64,000 nt of DNA from a virus, in IMG/VR virus record IMGVR_UViG_3300042908_001001, positions 1 through 64,000 of that record; one strand, given 5' to 3'. A program made the translations under genes and the position numbers. This document shows positions 9,399 to 59,867 of this stretch, piece by piece. Each line of letters opens with the position of its first letter. Position 1 is the stretch's first letter. Under the pieces are notes generated by a model. It saw only the letters and a list, made by a program, of their open reading frames with translations, was not told where the DNA came from and did not search any database.

Positions 9399-9490
9399 AT
9401 TGGTGTTTTACTCAAATAATAACCTATTGACATTTTAAAAATCTTGACATAATATCGAATTATCTTTAAAGTTTTTAAAACAAATTTAAT

Positions 9491-16148: not shown

Positions 16149-17018
16149 ATGCTATTTTTAATCATGCCCACGAACCCAAAAAGTAAAGTCGATCAAAAGA
16201 TTCTAATGGATCAGTTTTTAGCTCTACGTTTACTAATGGAAGAGTCGGGCATGATTAAATGGGTAAGCAAGAATGGCAAAAAGAATTTAGAGATTGAACC
16301 CAATTGTATCAGTCAACTAAAATCTCTTTACCCTGATAAAAAAAGAGAAATTCATTTAGGAGAAAAAGCAAAAGACATTTTAGTAATGTCTGTTAAGGGG
16401 ATGGTAATCGAAGTCGCTAGATACTATCTAGCAAAGATGCGCTTAGATAATTCAAAGCTAGATGAATTGATTCAGATGGGCTACTTAGGGGCTACTTATT
16501 CCCTCTATAAGTTTAATCCAACAAAAAATATCAAATGGTCATCTTATGCTTATCTTTGGATAAAAGCCAAAATCTCTAGAGGTTCTTATCAGGATTATCT
16601 AATAAAAGCTAATTTGAAATATGAAGCCTTAATATTGACAGTCCCTCAAAGGATAAAACGTTTTGATTTACTGGCTTTTTCTACGGACTTACTTTGGATT
16701 TATCTTTCCCAAAAGACAATCTATCCTACTTATCCTTTTAAGTTTTATTCGGAAAGTCCACAGGCAGATGACGGGTATACTTCTAGTATTTTTGACACTC
16801 TCCCATGTGAAAATAACAGAAATTTAGTTGATGAAATTCATTTAATTTTATCTCAGGACGAAATTGATATTCTAATGTCAGACGATCAAACCACAAAAAA
16901 GAAAAAAGACAATGTAGGTATTCTCGAAATGGCATTAATGCAAGGGATACCGTTAGACAATTTTTACGACAAAAAACAACAAATCATCAACAAAGTAATG
17001 GAGCGTATTGAATTATGA
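16149..17018 (+). CDS. sigma70-family-like factor (region 2)
   Basis: DELIQMGYLG...KFNPTKNIKWSSYAYLWIK matches sigma regions 2.2-2.4; region 4 not recognisable. Confidence 0.75.
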   Translation: MLFLIMPTNPKSKVDQKILMDQFLALRLLMEESGMIKWVSKNGKKNLEIEPNCISQLKSLYPDKKREIHLGEKAKDILVMSVKGMVIEVARYYLAKMRLDNSKLDELIQMGYLGATYSLYKFNPTKNIKWSSYAYLWIKAKISRGSYQDYLIKANLKYEALILTVPQRIKRFDLLAFSTDLLWIYLSQKTIYPTYPFKFYSESPQADDGYTSSIFDTLPCENNRNLVDEIHLILSQDEIDILMSDDQTTKKKKDNVGILEMALMQGIPLDNFYDKKQQIINKVMERIEL

Positions 17019-18277: not shown

Positions 18278-19654
18278 TCAAATCTTAAGCTTGACGATAA
18301 TATTCCCGCGATCGCAAGTCACCCGCTCAACCAATTCCCTGAAAATATCTCTCAACTCGAAATTAGTGGCAAGTCCCCAGAAATTAGGGTCGGATGTCGC
18401 TAGTAAATGCTCACTTAATAAATGATTATTTCTTTCTCCATATTGAGCATTAATCAAATTACTTAATTTAGTTTCATCTGCAAGAATAATATCATTCAGT
18501 CTAGGATCGTTTAACGATTTTAGTTGAGTGATATTCTTTCTTAGTTCTCTAATTTCTGGACTTTCTACAATCTCAGATTCACCCTCACATCCCCATTTAG
18601 CAACCTCCTGGGAGCGTAAAATCAAGGCGTCTATCACAGCATCAATATAATCTTGAATCTTTAGTCCGTAACTGGTTCTTATGCCACAAGTCGCACTTTT
18701 TCCGCATCTTGGGTAAGCTCCGTTACAGTACAGATAATAGGCTTGTTTTCGTGCATTGATAACCGATTTGGCTGACATACGACTTCCACAAGTACAAAAT
18801 ATAGACCCTGCTAACGGATTTCTCAATGTATCTGATTTTTTCGTTGTTTTGCTTGAATCTAATATGTTTTGAATATTTAGCCATTCTGATACCGTAATCA
18901 ATGGTTCATGATGATTAGGAATTTCAATTCTTTTGTTTTGTTTCTTTGGAAAATAAACCAACGTACCAATCAATGACGGGTTTTTTAGCCAGTCAATAAA
19001 AGCCGATTGGGTGTGAGGGAAATCATCCTCATGCGCCCTTAATCTCTCAGTGCCAAATCGTTTACACAATGCCCTAACCGTTCCTGAAGCTGTTTGAATT
19101 TCATAAAAGGTATCAATCGCTATTCTTACGACTTCTGGGTAGGTTATTCCCGTATCTTTGTATAGATTCCTATTAATAATTAATTCATCATTCACCATCA
19201 AATAACCAAAACAGGGTTTAAGCGGTAAATGTTTTGATCTGCGGTGTTGCATCCCTTTTAACGCTTGCTCTTGATTTAATCGCCTCTGAAAAGCATCGGT
19301 AGCCGCGATCACACTACTGGTATAAATCCCTACTGCCGATGTAATATCAAGCTTCCCTCTGTCCAAAGAAATCATCGTCACTCGCATTCTTTCGCATCGA
19401 CTTCTCAAATCAGCCCATATCATTTCATCCCTAGCCAGTCTTGATTGCAAAGGAAAAATTAATTCATCCCCTTCTCTCAAGATTTTCATCACAAAATCCA
19501 AACCAGCCCGCCCCATCTTGCCGCCACTGATAATATCGTAATAAATATTTTCAGGCTCCACCCCCGCCGCGATCAATTCCTTGGTGTATCGCTCGCTCGC
19601 ACTATTGTCTTCAAATTGATGTAACGTTGATTGTCTCCAGTAACCGATTTTCAT
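18278..19654 (-). CDS. large serine recombinase (integrase)
   Basis: MKIGYWRQST catalytic Ser motif, SRLAR, recombinase domain, zinc ribbon (CTCG...YLYC); AGAGGGA RBS before ATG 19654. Confidence 0.92.
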   Translation of the reverse strand: MKIGYWRQSTLHQFEDNSASERYTKELIAAGVEPENIYYDIISGGKMGRAGLDFVMKILREGDELIFPLQSRLARDEMIWADLRSRCERMRVTMISLDRGKLDITSAVGIYTSSVIAATDAFQRRLNQEQALKGMQHRRSKHLPLKPCFGYLMVNDELIINRNLYKDTGITYPEVVRIAIDTFYEIQTASGTVRALCKRFGTERLRAHEDDFPHTQSAFIDWLKNPSLIGTLVYFPKKQNKRIEIPNHHEPLITVSEWLNIQNILDSSKTTKKSDTLRNPLAGSIFCTCGSRMSAKSVINARKQAYYLYCNGAYPRCGKSATCGIRTSYGLKIQDYIDAVIDALILRSQEVAKWGCEGESEIVESPEIRELRKNITQLKSLNDPRLNDIILADETKLSNLINAQYGERNNHLLSEHLLATSDPNFWGLATNFELRDIFRELVERVTCDRGNIIVKLKI

Positions 19655-19663
19655 GGCTGTCCC

Positions 19664-19717
19664 TCTATTTGTGATTCCATTATACAGCCCACCCTGTATA
19701 TTCAATGCACAAATAGA
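19664..19717. other. putative attP site
   Basis: TCTATTTGTG-N7-TATACAG-CCCACC-CTGTATA-N7-CACAAATAGA dyad directly upstream of the integrase. Confidence 0.7.
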
Positions 19718-19724
19718 CTGAAAC

Positions 19725-19931
19725 ATGGACAAGGAAAGGCTTCTGGCAAAATCAGCTTATCTCAAAGCAGTTAATACGATGCTACTCATAGGCATTGAAT
19801 CGCAATTTTTTCCGATAGCCGAAACAACCAGTTATGAATTTGCGATCGCGCTTTTGGAGTGCATCAAGTTGTCAAAAAATTTAGCTGAGGATATTTTGGA
19901 AATAATTGAAACGGGAGTAGACGAATATTGA
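19725..19931 (+). CDS. small hypothetical protein divergent from the integrase
   Basis: 68 aa; followed by a bidirectional terminator. Confidence 0.5.
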   Translation: MDKERLLAKSAYLKAVNTMLLIGIESQFFPIAETTSYEFAIALLECIKLSKNLAEDILEIIETGVDEY

Positions 19932-22251: not shown

Positions 22252-23130
22252 TTATTTTTTCTTGTATTTTTCGTCAATAATACAAGGGACTGCATTACTC
22301 CATATTGGGAAATGATGTAGTCTTTTGTGTGTTACTCCCATCATACGAATACACACAAAAGACGGAGAACAAATAAGAGTATAAAAGCTCTTAACATACG
22401 TTCCAGACATCTTATATAAATCCGACATTCCCCCTTCCGACTCCTGAGTAGTTGCCTGATTAATAGATATTAGTGGGATTGTCAAAAATACATTACCCAC
22501 AGAACCCAGTCTAGTATAGGTATTTACGTCTTCATTTATCCTGCCAAAAAACTTAAATGGGCGTTTTGTTGAGCAAATAAAACTGTTCATACACTTTCTT
22601 TTTATAAATGGATATTTCCCGTTTTTATACCCAAAGTTATTCCCCCCACCGATAAAATCACCCCTCTGAGAAAATGCAATAGACAATACTCTATCATCAA
22701 CATCAAAATAGTTAATTAAAGACAAAATAATTGAATCTATATTTTTTATTTCTCTCTGTTTAAAAACACCGTTCTCATCTTCTGTAAAAGAGAAATTACT
22801 ATAGTCATCATCTAACTGCATAAAATAAGCTATGCCTAGATTCTTTGCAATATCAAAACAGGCGTTTCTAGCATAAATAATCGCCCTTCTATCTCCAAAA
22901 TTATCAAACTCGTCAAATGTTTTCGAGATAGCTAACTTGTCAAACATAATGACATTTTCTTTTCCAAAATTCTCATAATACTTATCGGCTGTTTTATCCT
23001 CATTATCTATCACAATATAAACACGCCCAGTGTATCCACATCGTTGTAATGTGCGGCAAGTCTTTACATTATCAGGTCTTCCGTGAGTGAGGATAAAAAT
23101 AGCAAAGTCTTCTAGTTTACTCATCACCAT
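22252..23130 (-). CDS. GT-A fold glycosyltransferase, TAGT/GREB1-like (DNA base modification)
   Basis: FAIFILTHGRP, YARN, QLDDD (DxD), GRINED, TQ...GGM. Confidence 0.75.
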   Translation of the reverse strand: MVMSKLEDFAIFILTHGRPDNVKTCRTLQRCGYTGRVYIVIDNEDKTADKYYENFGKENVIMFDKLAISKTFDEFDNFGDRRAIIYARNACFDIAKNLGIAYFMQLDDDYSNFSFTEDENGVFKQREIKNIDSIILSLINYFDVDDRVLSIAFSQRGDFIGGGNNFGYKNGKYPFIKRKCMNSFICSTKRPFKFFGRINEDVNTYTRLGSVGNVFLTIPLISINQATTQESEGGMSDLYKMSGTYVKSFYTLICSPSFVCIRMMGVTHKRLHHFPIWSNAVPCIIDEKYKKK

Positions 23131-26226: not shown

Positions 26227-26799
26227 ATGATTTTACCTGATTGGATGATTACAAGTTTATGCAAAGGTTTTATCCCCTTTGCAATAATGGAATATTGCGA
26301 AAATATTGGGTATAGCACGGGCAAAAGCTTGGAAAAGCCAATGGTGACACCGTTTGATCCTGAATTAGTTAATCCTGCTTCCCTAGATATTCGGGTTGGC
26401 AATACGGCTAAATTAAGGACTCAAAAAGGGTACAAAGATATTGATTTGTCCAAGTATTCAAAAGAATCACCCTACGCATTAAAACAGAGCGATCGCGTCT
26501 TGATTGACTCCCTAGAGACATTTAAGCTTCCTAACTTTATATGCGCTCAATTCAGGCTTAAAAGCTCAAGAGGGCGCGAATGGTACGAACACATGGAAGC
26601 GGGTTTTTGTGACCCAGGATGGCACGGTTCAAAGTTGACAATGGAAATTATCAATATGGATTTAGAGCCATTACCGCTTTACACAGGGTTAAGAATGGGT
26701 CAATTAATCTTTAGTTTGATGCTTGCAATTCCCGAAAAAGATTATTCTCAAACGGGAAGATATAACAATGATGAAAAAGTACAGGAGAGTAAGGGTTGA
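26227..26799 (+). CDS. dcd: dCTP deaminase
   Basis: VNPASLDIR, LKSSRGR, AGFCDPGWHG..LTME. Confidence 0.9.
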   Translation: MILPDWMITSLCKGFIPFAIMEYCENIGYSTGKSLEKPMVTPFDPELVNPASLDIRVGNTAKLRTQKGYKDIDLSKYSKESPYALKQSDRVLIDSLETFKLPNFICAQFRLKSSRGREWYEHMEAGFCDPGWHGSKLTMEIINMDLEPLPLYTGLRMGQLIFSLMLAIPEKDYSQTGRYNNDEKVQESKG

Positions 26800-26953: not shown

Positions 26954-27325
26954 ATGACAAATCTATCCATTCCCGAACCCCCGCCTATCCCTAATGACAA
27001 TCCTAGTATTCATGATTTAGTCGTGGAGGATTTAAAAAAGGATACTTACATTGTCCTAACAAAAGATATTTTAGATCGTAAAGCTTTTGGGCTTAAAAAG
27101 TATGGAGTTCCTTTACAGCAAGGCAATAGCCGAAACCCGTTAAGAGATGCTTTTCAAGAAGTATTGGATGCGATCTGTTACATCAAACAAGAAGCAATGC
27201 AGTCTAATAGTTTGGAGTCAAAAACGCTTTATTTTAAACTGATAGATATAGCAGAAGACCTTAAGGATTTAATCGAAAATAAACCAGAACAAGGAACAAA
27301 TATTTCAGTATTAGGAGATAAGTAA
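26954..27325 (+). CDS. small all-alpha NTP-pyrophosphatase-like (MazG-like) protein
   Basis: R..FGLKKYG..L...DAFQEVLDAICY; located between dcd and thyA. Confidence 0.45.
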   Translation: MTNLSIPEPPPIPNDNPSIHDLVVEDLKKDTYIVLTKDILDRKAFGLKKYGVPLQQGNSRNPLRDAFQEVLDAICYIKQEAMQSNSLESKTLYFKLIDIAEDLKDLIENKPEQGTNISVLGDK

Positions 27326-28149
27326 TGAACGTAAACAACGAATATCAACGCCTATTAGCTACCATCTTACATGGCGGCGATCGCGTTACAACCCGTAACC
27401 ATGATTGTATTAGTGACATTGACGGGATAAAGGCAAGTTTTGATTATTTCCCATTAGTTACTCTCAGGAAAATTGCGCCGAAAAAGGCTATTCGAGAAAT
27501 GGAATGGTTCATAAGTGGAGATACTAAATGCCCTGATGAATTGCTTGATTGGTGGGATGGACAACTGAATCCCGATGGGCATTATATACATGGATATGGA
27601 CATCAATTAAGAAATTTTAATTATGGATTTGATCAAATTGCCTTTGTAGCTAAAGCATTAAAAGAACACCAAAATAGTCGCAGGATTGTAACGACAACTT
27701 GGAATCCTGAAGAAATGGCAGAAATAACAGAAATAAATCAAAATCCAAACACACCCACGACTTGTCACGGAACTGAAACTCAGTTTTTTGTAAGGAATGG
27801 CAATCTATCAATTCACACTGTTCAACGGTCAGGTGATATACTCTTAGGAGTACCCCATAATTGGGTACAGTATTGGGCTTTGCTGTTGTTTTTTGCCCAT
27901 CATTCAGACTTGGGAGTAGGGAAGTTAGTTTGGACTTTCGGGGATGCCCACATCTATGATGATCCGAGCCATTTAGATTGTGCTAATGAAATTTTAAACG
28001 GTCAATCTTCAAAGGAAAAACCAGACTTAATTTATAAATATTCTGGGGGAGTTGATCATGTTGGATTGCCCGCTTTCAAGGCTTCTGATTTTACTATTGT
28101 CGGGACTATTCCTAAACCAGTAACCACAATTAAGCCAATATTATTTTAA
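27325..28149 (+). CDS. thyA: thymidylate synthase family protein
   Basis: YGHQLR, SRR, TCH, QRSGD, PHN, GDAHIY. Confidence 0.85.
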   Translation: MNVNNEYQRLLATILHGGDRVTTRNHDCISDIDGIKASFDYFPLVTLRKIAPKKAIREMEWFISGDTKCPDELLDWWDGQLNPDGHYIHGYGHQLRNFNYGFDQIAFVAKALKEHQNSRRIVTTTWNPEEMAEITEINQNPNTPTTCHGTETQFFVRNGNLSIHTVQRSGDILLGVPHNWVQYWALLLFFAHHSDLGVGKLVWTFGDAHIYDDPSHLDCANEILNGQSSKEKPDLIYKYSGGVDHVGLPAFKASDFTIVGTIPKPVTTIKPILF

Positions 28150-51955: not shown

Positions 51956-52010
51956 AACATAAGGGATTCAGCTTATTCTATGCACTAGAAATATTTCAGT
52001 CCATAAAGAT

Positions 52011-52189
52011 GGATCACCTTTTTTGGTCTATTGACCATTACAACCTATACACAGAAGCCGATCCAATGGGGTCAAAAAGTTATTACTAAGGCTAAAAAGA
52101 TATTATATCCAAAGTAATAACTTTCTAAGGGGCTTGGATCGGCTTCTACACAAGACTCTTAACGGTCAATAGATTAAAATACCCGATCC
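52011..52189. repeat. segmented inverted repeat centred on 52100
   Basis: Four paired blocks whose coordinates all sum to 104200. Confidence 0.85.
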
Positions 52190-52392
52190 CCACTTTTTTC
52201 ACTCACTATCTTGACTCATATTTCATCCTCACACCATAGCCATGTCAATCATTGACACAAGAAAACTCACTCATTTAAGCCCGTCCCCTATCTCGCTATA
52301 GTTTCTGCCTTCCGACTACCTAGCCCGCCTAGAATTTAATCCTATGGCCAAATGGTGAGACATTGAGTAAAGCGATCGCATTACAGGTTCAC

Positions 52393-52481
52393 TCTAAAAA
52401 TTAATTTGATTAAATACTTGACAAGTACAAAATATATTGATAGACTTGGGATATACCAAGAAAACAAGAGAGGACGTAGTA
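52393..52481 (+). promoter_or_regulatory. cassette head A1 (promoter + RBS), near-identical to 53148-53237
   Basis: TCTAAAAATTAATTTGAyTAAATACTTGACAAGTA...CTTGGGATATACCAAGAAAAC..GAGAGGAC. Confidence 0.85.
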
Positions 52482-52664
52482 ATGACTACCAAATTTAACA
52501 AGTCTGAAATTAAATTGATTAATCAAATCAAAAAAGCAGGAGAGTTGATCATTTACAATGAACCTAAATTTTGGGATAAAGTGCAAAGAATGATAGATAA
52601 GAGTCCTGATGCTTTTTGCTACGAAGTTCTAAATTCTGGATTAATAGTAATAACCCTTGCATAA
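52482..52664 (+). CDS. small cassette ORF
   Basis: ATG after a GAGAGGA RBS; 60 aa. Confidence 0.7.
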   Translation: MTTKFNKSEIKLINQIKKAGELIIYNEPKFWDKVQRMIDKSPDAFCYEVLNSGLIVITLA

Positions 52665-52670
52665 CCACCA

Positions 52671-52701
52671 CCGCGATCGCCTATCTCGCTTCTGATAGGC
52701 A
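52671..52701 (+). repeat. HIP1-anchored hairpin repeat (other copies 53465-53495, 54329-54358, 54634-54662)
   Basis: CCGCGATCGCCTATC-N9/10-GATAGGC shortly after stop codons. Confidence 0.85.
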
Positions 52702-52920: not shown

Positions 52921-53152
52921 ATGTCCTAAATGCGATCGCCCCTACCGATGCCCTAGATGCGGCGGCGATCGCTTATGGCTTGCTGGTTTTGTTTACGATA
53001 CCGCAAAATTTATCTGTAGTGATTGCAAATTCAAGTCTGCTCACTGTTTCTCCTGTAAAAAGGAAAAGCAGGAAACCGAGGCAATCAAAGCAGAGCTAAA
53101 GAAGCGAAAACCTTCTAAACCTAAACGCCGATGGGGAAACACAGGATTCTAA
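52913..53152 (+). CDS. zinc-finger hypothetical protein
   Basis: Four CxxC motifs and a basic tail. Confidence 0.6.
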   Translation: MIKCPKCDRPYRCPRCGGDRLWLAGFVYDTAKFICSDCKFKSAHCFSCKKEKQETEAIKAELKKRKPSKPKRRWGNTGF

Positions 53153-53237
53153 AAATTAATTTGACTAAATACTTGACAAGTATAAAGTATATTGATAAGC
53201 TTGGGATATACCAAGAAAACAAAGAGAGGACACAGTA

Positions 53238-53459
53238 ATGACCACCGCAACTATCCCCGCCAATATTGAAAAGCAAGTAAAGTTTTTAAATCAATCATTA
53301 ATCAAAGGAAAGATTACAGTCGAGCTAATCATTGAATCTGTAAAGACCTATGCCGATTCTGACAACTACGAAAACGAAGACGTACTGGATGCAATGCTTT
53401 TCTGGTTAGAAGAAAAAATGACCCCCGAATCTTACTCAGAACTTTGTGACTCACTTTAG
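53238..53459 (+). CDS. small acidic cassette ORF
   Basis: Lies between head A2 and a hairpin repeat. Confidence 0.7.
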   Translation: MTTATIPANIEKQVKFLNQSLIKGKITVELIIESVKTYADSDNYENEDVLDAMLFWLEEKMTPESYSELCDSL

Positions 53460-53523
53460 ATGAACCGCGATCGCCTATCTCGCTTCTGATAGGCAGTAAA
53501 TTTATTTTTGAGGATTTAGTTAA

Positions 53524-54327
53524 ATGGAAGATCTGAAGGCTATTTTTAATGACTGGCTTAAACAACAACCTCAATCTTATATGCTGTCTCAACCAGTTAA
53601 AGAATTGTTATTTAAAGCTTTTTTGTTTGGTAACGAAGAGGGTTATAAAAACTTGCCAAAAACCGATCCAGAAAATTACGATCATTTACTTGGCGTGATG
53701 CCCGATTCTGAAATTGCAAAACAATTTTCTATTTCTCGCCACTCTGTTTTATATAGAAGAAAAAAACTAGGGATTCCTGCCTACGATCCCCCTATACCAT
53801 ACGATCATTTACTTGGTACAAAACCAGATTCCGAAATTGCCAAAGATTTTGAGATGTCTGTTACGGCTGTACGCAATAGGAGGATAAGATTAAATATCCC
53901 TGCCTATAAAAACCCACCATTAAACATCCCTATTGATAAAATCCCGCCATCGTATGATCATTTACTTGGCACAATGCCCGACTCGCAAATTGCGAAAGAT
54001 TTTGGCACAACCAGACAATTAGTTCGATACAGAAGGAAAAAAAAAGATATCCCAGCGTTTGATCCTGTCCCAAAAATCGATCATTTGCTTGGCACAAAAT
54101 CCGATCACCAGATCGCCAAGGAGGTGGGAACACCTGTTTGCAATGTATCAAGAAAACGCCGAAAATTAAAAATAGATGTCTATGCCCCAGATTGCTTCTA
54201 TGCCCATTTACTGGGAACGATGCCCGATACTCAAATCGCAAAAGATTTCGGGGTTTCCAGTTCATCCGTTCAGCAACAGAGATCGAAACTAGGTATCCCC
54301 CCTTACAGCAAAAAAACATCAAAATAG
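53524..54327 (+). CDS. protein with five tandem HTH-like repeats
   Basis: 5 x (Y/I)xHLLGxxxDxxIAKx(F/V)...V..xRxxxxI. Confidence 0.8.
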   Translation: MEDLKAIFNDWLKQQPQSYMLSQPVKELLFKAFLFGNEEGYKNLPKTDPENYDHLLGVMPDSEIAKQFSISRHSVLYRRKKLGIPAYDPPIPYDHLLGTKPDSEIAKDFEMSVTAVRNRRIRLNIPAYKNPPLNIPIDKIPPSYDHLLGTMPDSQIAKDFGTTRQLVRYRRKKKDIPAFDPVPKIDHLLGTKSDHQIAKEVGTPVCNVSRKRRKLKIDVYAPDCFYAHLLGTMPDTQIAKDFGVSSSSVQQQRSKLGIPPYSKKTSK

Positions 54328-54389
54328 TCCGCGATCGCCTATCCCAACCCGATAGGCAATAAATTAATTTATTTTGAGGATAAAATCAA

Positions 54390-54747: not shown

Positions 54748-54816
54748 AATGAGAATGATTATCATTCTCATTTTGTTCCATAGATGGTTTCTATGATGAT
54801 AATGATAATCATTCTC
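54748..54816. promoter_or_regulatory. tandem Fur-box-like sites
   Basis: 25-bp palindrome AATGAGAATGAT-T-ATCATTCTCATT, and GATAATGATAATCATTCTC (18/19 to the Fur consensus). Confidence 0.7.
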
Positions 54817-54969
54817 ATTTTTAATACCCTTTACGCTATATATAGGTTAGGGAGCTTGTGTGTATTTGAAAACATTTAGAATCCGAGTAGAAATGTTTTG
54901 AGATTGTAGCCTGTTTTTAATTGACAAGCATATTTTATAATGTTAAGATGGAAAATAAAAAGGTAGATT

Positions 54970-55248
54970 ATGTTTCAATGCTGTGGCGTTTTGATGGCTA
55001 AGAATGGCCTTACCAAGGGCGGTAATCAAAAGTATCGCTGTAAAGTTTGCAAGAAAACTAAAGTAGATAGTCCTCCCAGACTTAGTCGTGAAGAGTATCA
55101 GAGACGATGGAGGGAAGAAAACCCTGATAAGGTAAGTCAGTGGCAAAAAGACTATTTTAAACGTCATCCCGAAAAGTACGAAGAAAAGAAAAAGAAAGAA
55201 ACTGAAAGACAAAGACTGGCTAGACAAGCTAAAAAACAAGCCAGTTAA
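54970..55248 (+). CDS. zinc-ribbon + charged helix protein
   Basis: CCG..KNG....NQKYRCKVC; own promoter TTGACA-17-TAAGAT at 54921. Confidence 0.65.
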   Translation: MFQCCGVLMAKNGLTKGGNQKYRCKVCKKTKVDSPPRLSREEYQRRWREENPDKVSQWQKDYFKRHPEKYEEKKKKETERQRLARQAKKQAS

Positions 55249-55276: not shown

Positions 55277-55678
55277 ATGGTCAAAGTCATAAGTCACAAG
55301 AAAGAAGTATTAGGACGGTATCAAAGGGCATTTAAAGCAAGTGCCGAGGATTTTGATACCGCCATGACTACCGTGATTAGAGAACCTAGAGACTGGCCGA
55401 GTGGATTCGGGACGACAATCAGGCGTGGCAGTGGTGAAACTGTAGTCGGTAGCTATCGTAATATTGTGGATTATGGCAATTTGAGAGATAGCCAGTTGAT
55501 GAGTGTTGAACAATTTAAGGCGATTTATTCGTGGGATGGTATGGGCGAGACACCCGCCGCTATCGTATTTTTCGGAGCTACCTTGAGAAACGGAACCCAG
55601 ATCCCGCCCAGAGACTGGGTATCAATGGCATTGAGTGAAATTAATTTGAGTGAGAAATTTAAAGACAATTTAGATTAA
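55277..55678 (+). CDS. tail completion protein (HK97 gp10-like)
   Basis: RNIVDYGNLRDS...PPRDWV; late motif upstream. Confidence 0.7.
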   Translation: MVKVISHKKEVLGRYQRAFKASAEDFDTAMTTVIREPRDWPSGFGTTIRRGSGETVVGSYRNIVDYGNLRDSQLMSVEQFKAIYSWDGMGETPAAIVFFGATLRNGTQIPPRDWVSMALSEINLSEKFKDNLD

Positions 55679-55744
55679 ATACTTGACAAGGATAAATTAT
55701 GTTGTTAAGATGGTTAGTATAAACCAAGTAAAGGAATTAATCAG

Positions 55745-55945
55745 ATGACCACTTCAAACGAAATTAAAAAAGCAGTCAAGGCAATCACAGGATTGAAAGT
55801 TAGAATCAAAGATAATAAAAAATTTTATACCATTAGCAACAGCGAAAGTCATCTTCCTAATGGGTTTGGTCACTTTGCGGAAGAATTAAAATCTATGTTT
55901 GCAGTAACCCGTCTTGATGGTTGTTCTTTTGACATTTTGAAGTAA
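55745..55945 (+). CDS. moron-like cassette ORF B1
   Basis: Own promoter head (55677) and terminator tail (55943-55993). Confidence 0.7.
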   Translation: MTTSNEIKKAVKAITGLKVRIKDNKKFYTISNSESHLPNGFGHFAEELKSMFAVTRLDGCSFDILK

Positions 55946-56022
55946 AAACAAAATCAATCAACTTTAACCCTTGCCCTAAAAAGTAAGGGTTAATATTTTA
56001 TAAAACAATCCCACCTTGTTTT

Positions 56023-56292
56023 ATGGAATTATCTCAAGCATTAACGCCCTTTATCACGTTCAACGGTTGCCAAGCCTCGCAATTAATGGTTAGGCATTTA
56101 AGGTATGGTGATAAAAGTTTTTATATTGTTAGAAGACAGTTACTCAAGAAAGGGACAAAACCCTATTATGTTTGCGAGATATTCGGGACTAAATTTTGCT
56201 CTATCTCCCTTGAGCAAATATTAAAAGACATTGAAAGCGTTTACCCCTGTAAAAATTATAAATATTATGGCAATAACACCGTTACAGCTTAA
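56023..56292 (+). CDS. hypothetical protein
   Basis: Late motif 25 nt upstream; overlaps the next ORF. Confidence 0.45.
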   Translation: MELSQALTPFITFNGCQASQLMVRHLRYGDKSFYIVRRQLLKKGTKPYYVCEIFGTKFCSISLEQILKDIESVYPCKNYKYYGNNTVTA

Positions 56293-56689
56293 GTCCGACC
56301 TTGAAAAAGTATTAGAAGTTACCCGTCATCCCACCACCAAGAAAGTGCTTACCTTTGGATTGGTTGGTAAATACACTTATCAGGCTAACGGATTTATTGA
56401 TACCGCGATCGCGATCGGTTCAGCCAAAAGCGGTGTCACAGTCGAGGGATTAGAGATTGTAATTGATTTTCCTAAAACCGAATCATCTTGTAGTACCGAC
56501 AAATACGTGCAATTAACAGAGAAATTTACCGTTAGGATGATTCAACGTAGTGGCGAGAATTTATACCCTGCTAGGGAGATTATTAAAAGGCTAGGGTTAA
56601 GGGATTATACCGACTCATCTATTATTGGGGATGTGATTGGTAATTATCCCCAGTATGTTTTCAGTTTTAGATACTCGGAAGGATTTTAA
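56267..56689 (+). CDS. probable tail terminator protein
   Basis: Position before the tail tube gene; G.YT...AI..G...V.GLE.VI. Confidence 0.55.
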   Translation: MAITPLQLKSDLEKVLEVTRHPTTKKVLTFGLVGKYTYQANGFIDTAIAIGSAKSGVTVEGLEIVIDFPKTESSCSTDKYVQLTEKFTVRMIQRSGENLYPAREIIKRLGLRDYTDSSIIGDVIGNYPQYVFSFRYSEGF

Positions 56690-56744
56690 AAGTTGTGGTT
56701 ATTATTTAATAGCCTATTTTTAAAACTCTAGAGGTAAAATTTTT

Positions 56745-57530
56745 ATGGCTTCCGACTTTGAATTGTTTAGTAATCCGATTACAAGCAAAAACTCAGTTAT
56801 TAATGCAGGATCAAAATTACTATTGTGTGCATTGCCTACTGGGTTTAGCGGTAAGACTGGGCCTCCTGAAATTACTCTCACACAAAAAACATCTACGGCG
56901 GTTTCGGTTGGGGGTACTAGCCTGACGATTACTCCCAGCGAGGATGTGATTTTAGCTGATGGTGTGATTTTGTATTTTACTGGTAACAAAAAATTTGTTG
57001 TTAACGGGACTCAGACCGTTACTGGGACTGATTTTGTGTTGGCAATCGATCCCGCCACAACTGGGAATACCCTTAGCGGTGGTGAAACTTGCCTAACGTG
57101 GGGGGTTTTGGCTTTAAACTCTCCAACCGATATCCCCTTAAACCAAGCCTCCAACATGGAGGGTCGTGGCGATCTTAACTACGGATTCCAAAAAGGGCAA
57201 AATCTGGTTGGTACAACTTTCGCGCCCCAAATTACCTGTTTTACGACTAATGACGATATTGCCTATGATAAGCTTATCAAGCCCTACGATGGGTCTGGTA
57301 ATACTATTTTTGCAATGATTTGGAGGGGGGATGGTCGATGGGCGGCTGGTGAAGCATTAGTCGTTAATCTGACTGAAAACGGGGCTGAATCAACCCAGAT
57401 CAAGCCTACTTTCACGCTTGACTTCCGACCCCCTTGGGTTATGGGGATCAAGTATTCGGAGATGACCGATCCTCAAAAGGCAGAAGCCAACTTGATTATG
57501 AAAAAATCTGGACTGCCCTTGCTTGCTTAA
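56745..57530 (+). CDS. major tail tube protein
   Basis: GAGGT RBS; beta-rich; GEALV...PTFTLDF; precedes the chaperone. Confidence 0.7.
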   Translation: MASDFELFSNPITSKNSVINAGSKLLLCALPTGFSGKTGPPEITLTQKTSTAVSVGGTSLTITPSEDVILADGVILYFTGNKKFVVNGTQTVTGTDFVLAIDPATTGNTLSGGETCLTWGVLALNSPTDIPLNQASNMEGRGDLNYGFQKGQNLVGTTFAPQITCFTTNDDIAYDKLIKPYDGSGNTIFAMIWRGDGRWAAGEALVVNLTENGAESTQIKPTFTLDFRPPWVMGIKYSEMTDPQKAEANLIMKKSGLPLLA

Positions 57531-57671
57531 GTTTTACTCTTTACCCTCTCTTAACCCTTACTCTGTAGGGGTTTCTTTATATCTATATTTTATTTTCCCT
57601 AAATACTTGACAAGTATAAAATAAGGGTATAAGATGGTTAGTATAAACCAAGCAAAGAGAGATTAAAGATT

Positions 57672-57989
57672 ATGGATTTTCAAAAAGAAATCACAATCAA
57701 AGGATGCACCATTAAATTAATCCCATCATCCGAGGTTCCAGTATATGATCGTTGTCAAGGGAAAAGGATTATGGGGGCTGGCTTTTTCCCTATCCCTGAA
57801 ACAAATTTAAAAGCATTATGTGTTTACACTCGGAGTTACGGAAAAAAGAGCTATTCTTTCGACTTTGGAGATACATGGAGTACGGTTAAAGAACACGCTT
57901 TTAGTTATTTCTTGGATTCATTAAAAGCTCAAATCGAAAATGAATTATACAGCACAACAGAAGGGACTTTATACGTCAAAGAAGCCTAA
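57672..57989 (+). CDS. moron-like cassette ORF B2
   Basis: Head at 57601, tail 57987-58038. Confidence 0.7.
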   Translation: MDFQKEITIKGCTIKLIPSSEVPVYDRCQGKRIMGAGFFPIPETNLKALCVYTRSYGKKSYSFDFGDTWSTVKEHAFSYFLDSLKAQIENELYSTTEGTLYVKEA

Positions 57990-58045
57990 AAACAAATCAA
58001 TCAATCCTTAACCCTTGCCCTAAAAAGTGAGGGTTATCATTTTTT

Positions 58046-58279
58046 ATGCTTAAACTACAATCACCTAACGGAAAAGTAATTTTATGGGGTGCTACTGTAA
58101 GCGATCGCACTGTATCGGCTGAGATAGCGTTTATCGGGTCGTCAATTCAAAACCCGATGATTCCACTATCAAAACCTAACAGCAAGACTAGGGAGTGTTT
58201 TGTTAGACTGCCAGACAACTTTTTGATGCAAGCTTTGCCCATGAAAGGGAATAATATTACGCTTGAAATTATTGATTGA
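58046..58279 (+). CDS. small tail-region protein
   Basis: Lies between cassettes B2 and B3. Confidence 0.55.
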   Translation: MLKLQSPNGKVILWGATVSDRTVSAEIAFIGSSIQNPMIPLSKPNSKTRECFVRLPDNFLMQALPMKGNNITLEIID

Positions 58280-58353
58280 TTAGAATGCTTGACAAGTACA
58301 GAATAAGGGGATAAGATGGTTAGTATAAACCAAGTAAAGAGAGATTAAAGATT

Positions 58354-58650
58354 ATGAACGCTAGAAAATACGACGACATTCAAACAAATACAGTTACTCG
58401 CTACGAAATCGCTTTGATGGAAGGCGAAAAAATAATCAAAGTTTTAGGTTACACAGCAAAGAAAACAAAGCAAGCTTTATTCAATACAGTAAGTAATGGG
58501 GATGACTTAACAAAATACTTTCAAGAATCAGAATTAGATTGCGAATATTTTTATGATAAAAAATGGGGGATCGTATTTTGCCCACGATTAAGAGTCGCAT
58601 TTTCTGGTAGAACAGAGAGACAAGTGGCAACAGAAAAAGTATTTGCATAA
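58354..58650 (+). CDS. moron-like cassette ORF B3
   Basis: Head at 58283, tail 58648-58699. Confidence 0.7.
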   Translation: MNARKYDDIQTNTVTRYEIALMEGEKIIKVLGYTAKKTKQALFNTVSNGDDLTKYFQESELDCEYFYDKKWGIVFCPRLRVAFSGRTERQVATEKVFA

Positions 58651-58753
58651 AAACTAAATCAATCCACTCTTAACCCTCGCCCTAAAAAGTGAGGGTTATT
58701 TTGTTTTAATAATTATGGTTATTATTTATTGTCGTTAAATATTTAAAACAATT

Positions 58754-59476
58754 ATGGTACTTGCAGTAAATAGTAATCAGAGAGCGCGATTTGTAAAAAG
58801 TTTAGGGATTGACGAAAATAGTCTCCCTTTTGTATTATTCCCTAAACAATCTTTAATTCAGTCGGTTAGTAACTTAGTGACTGAATCGGTCGCTGGTTTT
58901 GATATTCCCATTATTAATGATTTTACGCCTTCCGAGAAACTCCTTTTTACCGCGATTGATTTAAAAGCCCGTCCTCTCTATATTGAATATCAGGAAGTCA
59001 ATGAGGATCTGGCAGAAGCATTGTCTTTGGTCGTTACCGCCGATGGTTCGCCATTAGTTCCCGATGGAATTGAACCGATTAAATTCATCACTCCTGATTC
59101 TGAATTTGTGCAATCAGAGATTTATACACAAATCACAAAATCACAGTCTTACAAGCGATTTAAACGTGACAACCGTGAGCTATTTGACGATCAGGATCAG
59201 GTCTATACGAAACTGATTATCCTTGACCTCACAATGGGACGTGCCAAAGTTGCTTTATTCCTTTCTACTCGGATTGATACAACTTGGTTTGATCGTGCAA
59301 ACGAGTTAAGTGTTGAGCAAATTAAGGAGATTGTGCAATTTATCCAGAAGGAAGGTAACGGGGGTAAAACGGAAGATGAACCAACAGAAGAAGACGAAAC
59401 TAAAGGAGAGGTAGTTACCGAAAAAAACGACTCCAACAAGAAATCGAAAGATGGTCAGATCACTACTGGGAACTAG
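58754..59476 (+). CDS. tail assembly chaperone (gpG-like)
   Basis: Position after the tube gene; slippery A-AAA-AAC at 59422-59428. Confidence 0.7.
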   Translation: MVLAVNSNQRARFVKSLGIDENSLPFVLFPKQSLIQSVSNLVTESVAGFDIPIINDFTPSEKLLFTAIDLKARPLYIEYQEVNEDLAEALSLVVTADGSPLVPDGIEPIKFITPDSEFVQSEIYTQITKSQSYKRFKRDNRELFDDQDQVYTKLIILDLTMGRAKVALFLSTRIDTTWFDRANELSVEQIKEIVQFIQKEGNGGKTEDEPTEEDETKGEVVTEKNDSNKKSKDGQITTGN

Positions 59477-59835
59477 CGATCGCGCTTCCTAACGATGATA
59501 GATTTGATTATAGAAATTTTGCCAATCAATCACCTAGATTAATTAGGCAAGCACTCAATCAAATCTATCAAAAAAGGAACCTTGACCAGTATTCTACGGC
59601 TTTAGGGATTTCAACTTATGCAAACGCTAATAGAGGAGAAAATAGTCAGCCTATTGAGTTTTATCAATTCTTACCTCATCCATTAGTTTGGAGACAAAAT
59701 AATACTCAGAAGAAAATAAATATTAGTAAGAATACAGCGATTCAATTCTTAGCTGATTACTCTAGCTTTACCTCTGAAATGTTATCCGTCTTTGATGAAT
59801 GGATGGATGAGATAAGAATGACAGCAAGCGGTTAA
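59422..59835 (+). CDS. -1 frameshift extension of the tail chaperone (gpT-like)
   Basis: Open -1 frame KKRLQQEIERWSDHYWELAIALP...IRMTASG* with no start codon near its 5' end. Confidence 0.75.
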   Translation, partial: KKRLQQEIERWSDHYWELAIALPNDDRFDYRNFANQSPRLIRQALNQIYQKRNLDQYSTALGISTYANANRGENSQPIEFYQFLPHPLVWRQNNTQKKINISKNTAIQFLADYSSFTSEMLSVFDEWMDEIRMTASG

Positions 59836-59867
59836 CCCTATTATTTATTTGGTAGGGTTTTCTATTG

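Follow-up and report, generated by a model that had tools for sequence, protein, structure and literature searches.

Morons of lambdoid phages are said to have been described in 2000 by Juhala and colleagues and by Hendrix and colleagues, and classical morons are not known to have standardised flanks. These lambdoid morons are summarised in one of two papers devoted to the promoter-early stem-loops (PeSLs) of T4-type myoviruses (Arbiol et al. 2010, PMC2839356; Comeau et al. 2014, PMC4122927), the summary being in PMC2839356. PeSLs consist of a conserved promoter and a stem-loop that extend from the stop codon of one gene to the ATG of the next; they flank genes without relatives, terminate transcription, and, in T4-type phages, provide the crossover homology for insertion, deletion, and replacement (PMC2839356, PMC4122927). 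Here, we describe comparable units of an uncultured cyanophage in a stretch of 64,000 nucleotides (the window), which comprises bases 1–64000 of the 76,533-bp IMG/VR virus record IMGVR_UViG_3300042908_001001, rated 88% complete. Three of these units (B1, B2, and B3) carry near-identical heads and tails around three unrelated small genes, and two A-type units and one C-type unit precede them. HIP1 sites (GCGATCGC) number 47 in the window as against 0.34 expected from base composition, a signature of cyanobacteria and their phages.

In function, the units resemble PeSLs and, in layout, morons, but with standardised flanks; they do not appear to be a new kind of element. The reading that we prefer, with a probability of about 0.6, is that they are autonomous, insulated expression units read by host RNA polymerase, the flanks of which have probably been copied or homogenised locally and may serve as recombination handles, as in PeSLs. 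Like PeSLs, they are repeated conserved modules that combine a strong sigma-70-type promoter with a terminator stem-loop (both assigned here by consensus match), and they occur in many copies at small genes without known relatives (here, three B, two A, and one C units), with no family match for the B and A payloads and, for the C payload, a match to an IS1/IS1595-type zinc-binding domain only. They differ from PeSLs in that promoter and hairpin, fused in the latter, stand here on opposite sides of the gene, a hairpin preceding a head (by 30 nt) at B2 only (57553); in that the phage is not T4-like, having an HK97-type capsid protein, a 3,488-aa tape measure protein, a sigma factor of its own, and a serine recombinase; in that the units stand singly among late genes rather than in a packed hyperplastic array; and in that one hairpin arm, that of B1, doubles as a late motif. 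Further features of PeSLs are differences between close relatives with crossovers inside the repeats, and mini-circles that arise when repeats recombine.

The likeness to morons lies in the single gene within a late cluster that, judging by sequence features, has its own promoter and terminator, and in a base composition unlike that of the neighbours—although the difference in G+C content at third codon positions (GC3) is weak here and the open reading frames (ORFs) are short. The departure from morons lies in the flanks, which are standardised here, whereas no conserved flanks are known to be common to different classical morons. Integron cassettes (attC) are likewise single-ORF units ending in an imperfect inverted repeat, but this identity was rejected, given the units’ own promoters, arms that do not fit the RYYYAAC and GTTRRRY cores (by eye), and the lack of any integron integrase among the genes seen. 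Also rejected were a miniature inverted-repeat transposable element or insertion sequence (the start of the head and the end of the tail are not inverted copies and no flanking duplication is visible, again by eye) and a free-standing homing endonuclease gene (the payloads have 66–105 aa and no match in Pfam, PHROG, or NCBIfam).

Shared heads and tails around unrelated genes

An earlier note on this DNA, made from the sequence without database searches, had placed heads at 55677, 57601, and 58283 and tails at 55943, 57987, and 58648, and these positions proved right to within 1 nt. The head pattern CTTGACAAG-N15-TAAGATGGTTAGTATAAACCAAG matches exactly at 55682, 57606, and 58288, always on the plus strand, and, with up to three mismatches allowed, nowhere else in the window or in the whole 76.5-kb record (0 expected from shuffles). 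The tail pattern TTAACCCTYGCCCTAAAAAGTRAGGGTTA matches exactly at 55964, 58008, and 58670 (0 expected by chance) and nowhere else in the record. Both families, of 73 nt (heads, D5) and 59 nt (tails, D6), were recovered independently by a repeat finder; the exact head and tail patterns had 0 matches in IMG/VR.

Heads of ~70 nt and tails of ~60 nt thus enclose ORFs of 66, 105, and 98 aa (Table 1). Gapped identity between heads is 92% for B2 and B3, 84% for B1 and B2, and 78% for B1 and B3, and that among the three tails is 85–88%. In the alignments, conservation extends from ~5 nt 5′ of the −35 hexamer to the ATG, is lost within one codon, returns exactly at the stop codon, and stops past the T-run. 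Even the promoter spacer, though unconstrained, is identical in B2 and B3 at 13 of 16 positions, which counts in favour of cassettes.

All three B heads contain a sigma-70-type promoter, TTGACA-17 nt-TAAGAT, matching the consensus at ten of the twelve hexamer positions (A1 and C likewise reach 10/12 with a 17-nt spacer), followed by the leader GGTTAGTATAAACCAAG and a purine-rich ribosome-binding stretch before the ATG. Each B tail consists of the stop codon, a CA-rich spacer of ~20 nt that is rich in ATCA, a 10–11-bp stem with an 8-nt loop, and a T-rich run. The tail hairpins have folding energies of −12.4 to −15.2 kcal/mol (z of −2.9 to −4.8 versus shuffles), with a T-run after each, and one stem pair is U:A in B1, U:G in B2, and C:G in B3, a change that fits selection on the helix at the RNA level, three sequences being few. 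The leader hairpin GGUU...AACC is insignificant as an RNA fold (z of −0.3 to −1.5). The standardised unit that had been proposed, i.e. a near-consensus promoter and a terminator-like hairpin with T-run around unrelated ORFs, is therefore borne out in its sequence features.

Table 1. Features of the cassette block and of the surrounding genome (positions in the window, unless stated otherwise).
Feature	Position	Strand	Description
133-aa gene behind late motif	55277–55678	+	No family
B1 head	55677–55744	+	TTGACA at 55683, 17 nt, TG-extended TAAGAT, leader; overlaps stop codon of ORF 55277–55678
B1 payload, 66 aa	55745–55945	+	
B1 tail	55943–56002	+	11-bp stem, 8-nt loop (55964–55993), T-rich run; −14.2 kcal/mol, z −4.8
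89-aa and 140-aa genes, overlapping	56023–56689	+	No family
Canonical late motif GGTTATTATTTA	56697–56708	+	48 nt before 261-aa gene
261-aa gene	56745–57530	+	No family; ‘tail tube’ is a guess from position only
Terminator hairpin after 261-aa gene	57553–57573	+	AACCCTTAC...GTAGGGGTT and T-run; AACCCTT arm in common with tails; 30 nt before B2 head
B2 head	57601–57671	+	TTGACA at 57607, 17 nt, TAAGAT, leader; −35 within dyad ATACTTGACAAGTAT
B2 payload, 105 aa	57672–57989	+	
B2 tail	57987–58045	+	10-bp stem, 8-nt loop (58009–58036), then TCATTTTTT straight into ATG of ORF 58046
77-aa ORF between B2 and B3	58046–58279	+	ATG abuts last T of B2 T-run; no late motif at normal distance
B3 head	58283–58353	+	TTGACA at 58289, 17 nt, TAAGAT, leader
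B3 payload, 98 aa	58354–58650	+	
B3 tail	58648–58708	+	10-bp stem, 8-nt loop (58671–58698), then TTTTGTTTT; −15.2 kcal/mol, z −4.7
240-aa gene	58754–59476	+	No family; own late motif
Fifth AACCC...GGGTT hairpin	59834–59859	+	~360 nt downstream of 240-aa gene
A1 cassette	52393–52701	+	TTGACA-17-TAGACT, then CTTGGGATATACCAAG; 60-aa ORF 52482–52664; HIP1-anchored hairpin terminator 52670–52701
A2 cassette	53148–53495	+	Head 91% identical to A1; 73-aa ORF 53238–53459; terminator 53464–53495
C unit	54918–55248	+	TTGACA-17-TAAGAT; 92-aa ORF 54970–55248; no hairpin; stop codon inside late motif of next gene
Sigma factor	16149–17018		PHROG match
Large serine recombinase	18278–19732	−	PHROG match; sole recombinase found
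Large terminase	20035	−	PHROG match
Portal	31786		PHROG match
Tail proteins	3317, 28669, 30476, 41039		PHROG matches
HK97-type capsid protein	42796	−	PHROG match
Protease	44500	−	PHROG match
Tape measure protein, 3,488 aa	62972–73438 of the whole record		PHROG 2335

The three B payloads are unrelated to each other, as the earlier note had held: no similarity was found among them by BLASTP (E up to 10, word size 2), and hhalign between the three family profiles gave probabilities of at most 0.2%. They match nothing in Pfam, PHROG, or NCBIfam. Homologues of the B1 payload fall into two clusters, P0009 (95%) and P0010 (86%), and those of the B2 payload into one cluster of ~60% identity (P0012 and 16 others). 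The B3 payload belongs to a small family of phage proteins that share the conserved motif GYTA[RK]KTK and, at 26–49% identity, are spread across metagenome and IMG/VR contigs of 37–67% G+C, including IMG/VR phages of 63–67% G+C (L010–L012); no close B3 relatives were found in IMG/VR and no B3-family relatives in species genomes. The AlphaFold2 model of B3 has a predicted local distance difference test (pLDDT) score of 77 and matches no PDB structure, its one weak viral match being to an unnamed protein, and the ESM Atlas gave no usable lead for B1 and B2. Since each payload has its own homologues and the B3 model folds, the payloads look like real genes. Their GC3 is 0.27–0.32, as against 0.35–0.43 in all six flanking genes (exact Mann–Whitney p = 0.012), a weak contrast between short ORFs. 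By analogy with what is usual for small early phage genes, they probably act in host take-over or counter-defence.

Unrelated phages, too, carry B3-family genes as single-gene units among local regulatory repeats. On one metagenome contig (L006; 11,383 bp, 53% G+C), such a gene belongs to an array in which a TGCTAYAAT promoter repeat occurs 18 times in 11.4 kb. Along this contig (1–11383), small ORFs are each preceded by a G/C hairpin and a TGCTAYAAT repeat, and 59-nt tandem repeats occur besides; the arrangement is that of a textbook-like PeSL array, though outside the T4-type phages.

The wider block extends the pattern upstream. The CTTGACAAG-type promoter occurs in six copies, all on the plus strand, between 52.4 and 58.3 kb. 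The terminators of A1 and A2 are identical over 32 nt (a HIP1 site, then a GCCTATC...GATAGGC hairpin) and form a family distinct from the B tails, and the ORFs that they close, of 60 and 73 aa, show no relationship in BLASTP and have no family match. The C payload is an IS1/IS1595-type N-terminal zinc-binding domain without the transposase core (NF050000, 30.4 bits). Both hairpin families are local, with GCCTATC stems confined to 52.7–54.7 kb and AACCC...GGGTT stems to 55.9–59.9 kb, and this clustering indicates short-range copying or homogenisation.

Some further features of this block may be recorded. Two more GCCTATC-family hairpins, at 54337 and 54642, close the next two genes, and all four hairpins of this family except that of A1 have a common TTTATTTTGAGGAT-type ribosome-binding stretch behind them. 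Directly before the first cassette, ~430 nt (51960–52390) contain no credible ORF. Two 19-bp palindromes (54751–54769 and 54798–54816), 47 bp apart and 100–170 nt upstream of the C promoter, have one to three mismatches to the classical Fur-box consensus (0.02 expected by chance); the pair suggests a possible iron input to phage gene expression.

Late motifs in and beside the tails

Many virion genes on both strands are preceded by a −35-less late motif, GGTTAWTATTTA, which is probably read with the sigma factor of the phage. A weight matrix for this motif was built from 11 sites outside the tails. Besides the canonical late motif at 56697 (Table 1), late motifs lie at 55243, 58717, and 62938, and the distance from motif to ATG is normally 26–60 nt.

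The earlier note had claimed that the 3′ arm of the tail supplies the start of a late motif for the next gene in B1, and nearly so in B2, so that a cassette re-seeds a late promoter while it stops read-through. The matches that it quoted, GGTTAATATT in B1 and GGTTATCATT in B2, are indeed present in the tail arms, and at B1 the claim holds: the 3′ hairpin arm and the bases that follow (55988) form the late motif GGTTAATATTTT, which, at 15.7 bits, is the eighth-best site in the genome and stands 35 nt ahead of the ATG at 56023, inside the normal range. Because no other late motif intervenes between the B1 hairpin and this ATG, the tail site is the likely promoter of the genes at 56023–56689, if these are late genes. 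At B2, the case is marginal, as the late-like motif GGTTATCATTTT (58032; 11.2 bits) carries C where T is conserved and begins just 14 nt ahead of the ATG, outside the range, and at B3 the claim fails, with a tail score of 6.0 bits and a canonical late motif 24 nt further on, at 58717. All three tails nevertheless rank in the top 0.1% of genome positions.

The further proposal that such cassettes explain the fragmentation of the late operon was not supported. About 10 of the 14 late-motif sites, on both strands, have no cassette adjoining, and cassettes are therefore not needed for a split late operon. It is more likely that the provision of one promoter per late unit lets the genome tolerate terminator-bearing insertions than that cassettes caused the fragmentation.

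The B heads themselves (at 55712, 57636, and 58318) hold GGTTAGTATAAA, a weak look-alike of the late motif that scores 4.4 bits (top 0.14% of positions) and stands 33–36 nt before the ATG, a distance usual for late motifs; the heads might be dual early/late promoters or derivatives of late promoters.

Proposed expression, origin, and exchange of the units

Under the preferred reading, transcription by host RNA polymerase, directed by the primary sigma factor of the host, would begin at the head, at a site predicted 6–8 nt after TAAGAT, and would pass through a leader of ~30 nt with a purine-rich ribosome-binding stretch into one small gene. An intrinsic terminator directly past the stop codon (10–11-bp stem, 8-nt loop, and U-run) would then shield the neighbouring late genes from early or constitutive transcription, and these genes would be restarted from their own −35-less motifs, one of which, at B1, overlaps the descending hairpin arm. 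The near-identity of heads and of tails would have arisen through local copying or homogenisation; B2 and B3 are both the most alike and the closest, and the A pair follows the same pattern. As homology between units is limited to the flanks, it is there that crossovers for payload swap, gain, or loss would be likely.

Comparison with homologues points in the same direction. In the protein databases, a contig of 56,725 bp is given as the source of the 95% homologue of the B1 payload and also of a 61% homologue of the 261-aa protein, and one of 3,185 bp as the source of the 86% homologue of the B3 payload and also of a 66% homologue of the 261-aa protein, a shared contig being inferred in both cases from equal size. 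Neither neighbour of B1 has a 90% cluster member from a 56,725-bp contig, and homologues of at least 90% identity to the genes on both sides of B1 come from records with an 11,901-bp contig. If equal contig size does mean co-location, these identity contrasts fit cassette exchange between diverged backbones.

Several considerations weigh against this reading. Strong purifying selection on B1 could equally give 95% as against 61%, and the putative promoters, terminators, and timing are assigned by consensus. Head and tail are split by a gene, unlike the contiguous PeSL, and late genes would be lost if two heads of this genome were to recombine. No phage single-strand-annealing recombinase turned up among the scanned ORFs, and the observation of the earlier note that no dedicated recombinase is evident stands, in that none can be linked to the cassettes. 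Lastly, conserved dyads in the heads mean that similarity could be kept by a shared regulator rather than reflect recent copying.

This last point can be developed into a different account, in which the units form a co-regulated regulon that is neither mobile nor shuffled, the heads being alike for the sake of one regulator and the host polymerase, and the genes being old residents of the lineage. The −35 hexamer does form part of a dyad, which reads ATACTTGACAAGTAT in B2 and A2; in five of the six heads it comprises at least CTTGACAAG, with reverse-strand matches at the same positions. A second inverted repeat (TGGTT-N6-AACCA in B, CTTGG-N6-CCAAG in A) spans the predicted start site; these dyads look like operators and are candidate sites, and the block also codes for a protein with five helix-turn-helix (HTH) repeats and for two zinc-ribbon proteins. 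Yet the 92% head identity spans spacer and leader positions that no factor should read and ends sharply at the ATG, the tails are as conserved as the heads (A1 and A2 to the point of identical terminators), the payloads are unlike their neighbours in base composition, the start-site repeat is insignificant as an RNA fold, and the binder is only hypothetical, so that a regulon of this kind seems unlikely to us. Less credence still goes to a plug-in cassette with a portable late promoter in its terminator arm, insertion of which would stop read-through and restart late transcription at once. B1, with its full, high-ranking motif at a normal distance and no other in that gap, is what such a cassette should look like, and the presence of all three tails in the top 0.1% fits one ancestral motif-bearing tail; but B3 needs, and has, a separate canonical motif, the B2 motif is imperfect and too close to the ATG, and a GGGTT arm with T-run is typical of the local hairpin family, of which the members at 57553 and 59834 have arms without a motif, just as most late motifs have no adjoining hairpin. 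It is correspondingly doubtful that the tail is a terminator plus a movable late promoter, with which a cassette could enter any late transcription unit, leave the gene behind it active, and, being neutral in its effect on transcription, spread through recombination at late-promoter motifs. Tandem duplication of one cassette, with the payloads as diverged paralogues, would account for flanks of clearly common ancestry and for the adjacency and likeness of B2 and B3, but we reject it as highly improbable: besides the negative BLASTP and hhalign comparisons, the payloads differ in length (66, 105, and 98 aa), each has a separate homologue set, and, at the DNA level, an identity of more than 90% gives way to noise inside a single codon at the ATG and at the stop codon.

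With regard to the dyads, those at the −35 hexamers lie at 55678–55692, 57602–57616, and 53167–53182, and the start-site inverted repeats at 55708–55728, 57632–57652, and 58314–58334. The five-HTH protein, in which the repeats are in tandem (53524–54327, inside the cassette block; repeat family D4), is a candidate binder of the head dyads.

To return to the preferred reading of insulated, host-read units with locally copied flanks, its consequences would reach beyond this locus. If the flanks act as recombination handles, PeSL-type shuffling would be extended from T4-type myoviruses to an unrelated, long-tailed cyanophage lineage, and PeSL-type units could be placed one by one within a cluster of late virion genes. 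At B1, where terminator arm and late promoter overlap, an inserted gene would be insulated in little space and the next gene kept active. Additionally, heads and tails may be of use as ready-made parts for gene expression in cyanobacteria, and the payloads are candidate host take-over or counter-defence genes.

Neighbouring genes and phage background

The genes around the cassettes had been taken for consecutive tail genes, an assignment with a positional basis only, i.e. the same strand, the same late motif, and a location upstream of the tape measure gene, from which a reverse-strand helicase block separates them. The flanking genes have no match in Pfam, PHROG, or NCBIfam, and PDB sequence searches with three flanking proteins gave none. 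For the 261-aa protein, tblastn against GenBank phages found no match, no relatives were found in IMG/VR, JGI metagenomes, or species genomes, and the AlphaFold2 model has a pLDDT of 32. The ORF at 58046–58279 has no ribosome-binding stretch before its ATG (58032–58048); it may have a leaderless message, depend on read-through, or not be a gene.

The best match of the capsid protein among GenBank phages is only 28% identical, and the phage lineage is therefore new. Megablast of 50–64 kb against GenBank phages found no match, and an Rfam scan of 51.9–60 kb found no credible one. A tape measure of 3,488 residues would imply a very long tail, and the protein contains a lysin-like stretch near residues 2314–2501. 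Matches to glucosyl-hydroxymethylcytosine glucosyltransferase, dCTP deaminase, and thymidylate-synthase-like proteins (22252–23130, 26227–26799, and 27325–28149) occur alongside three encoded DNA methyltransferases, a gene set that suggests possible hypermodification of the phage DNA. Promoter-like repeats of a third family, which consist of an AT-rich block (e.g. AATTTGTTTTAWNAWTTTTGTTGACA), are found at 9460, 14491, 21714, 24809, 38210, 46788, 50014, and 62897; most of these repeats (families D7, D10, and D11) fall into the gaps that separate gene blocks, in several cases where the coding strand switches.

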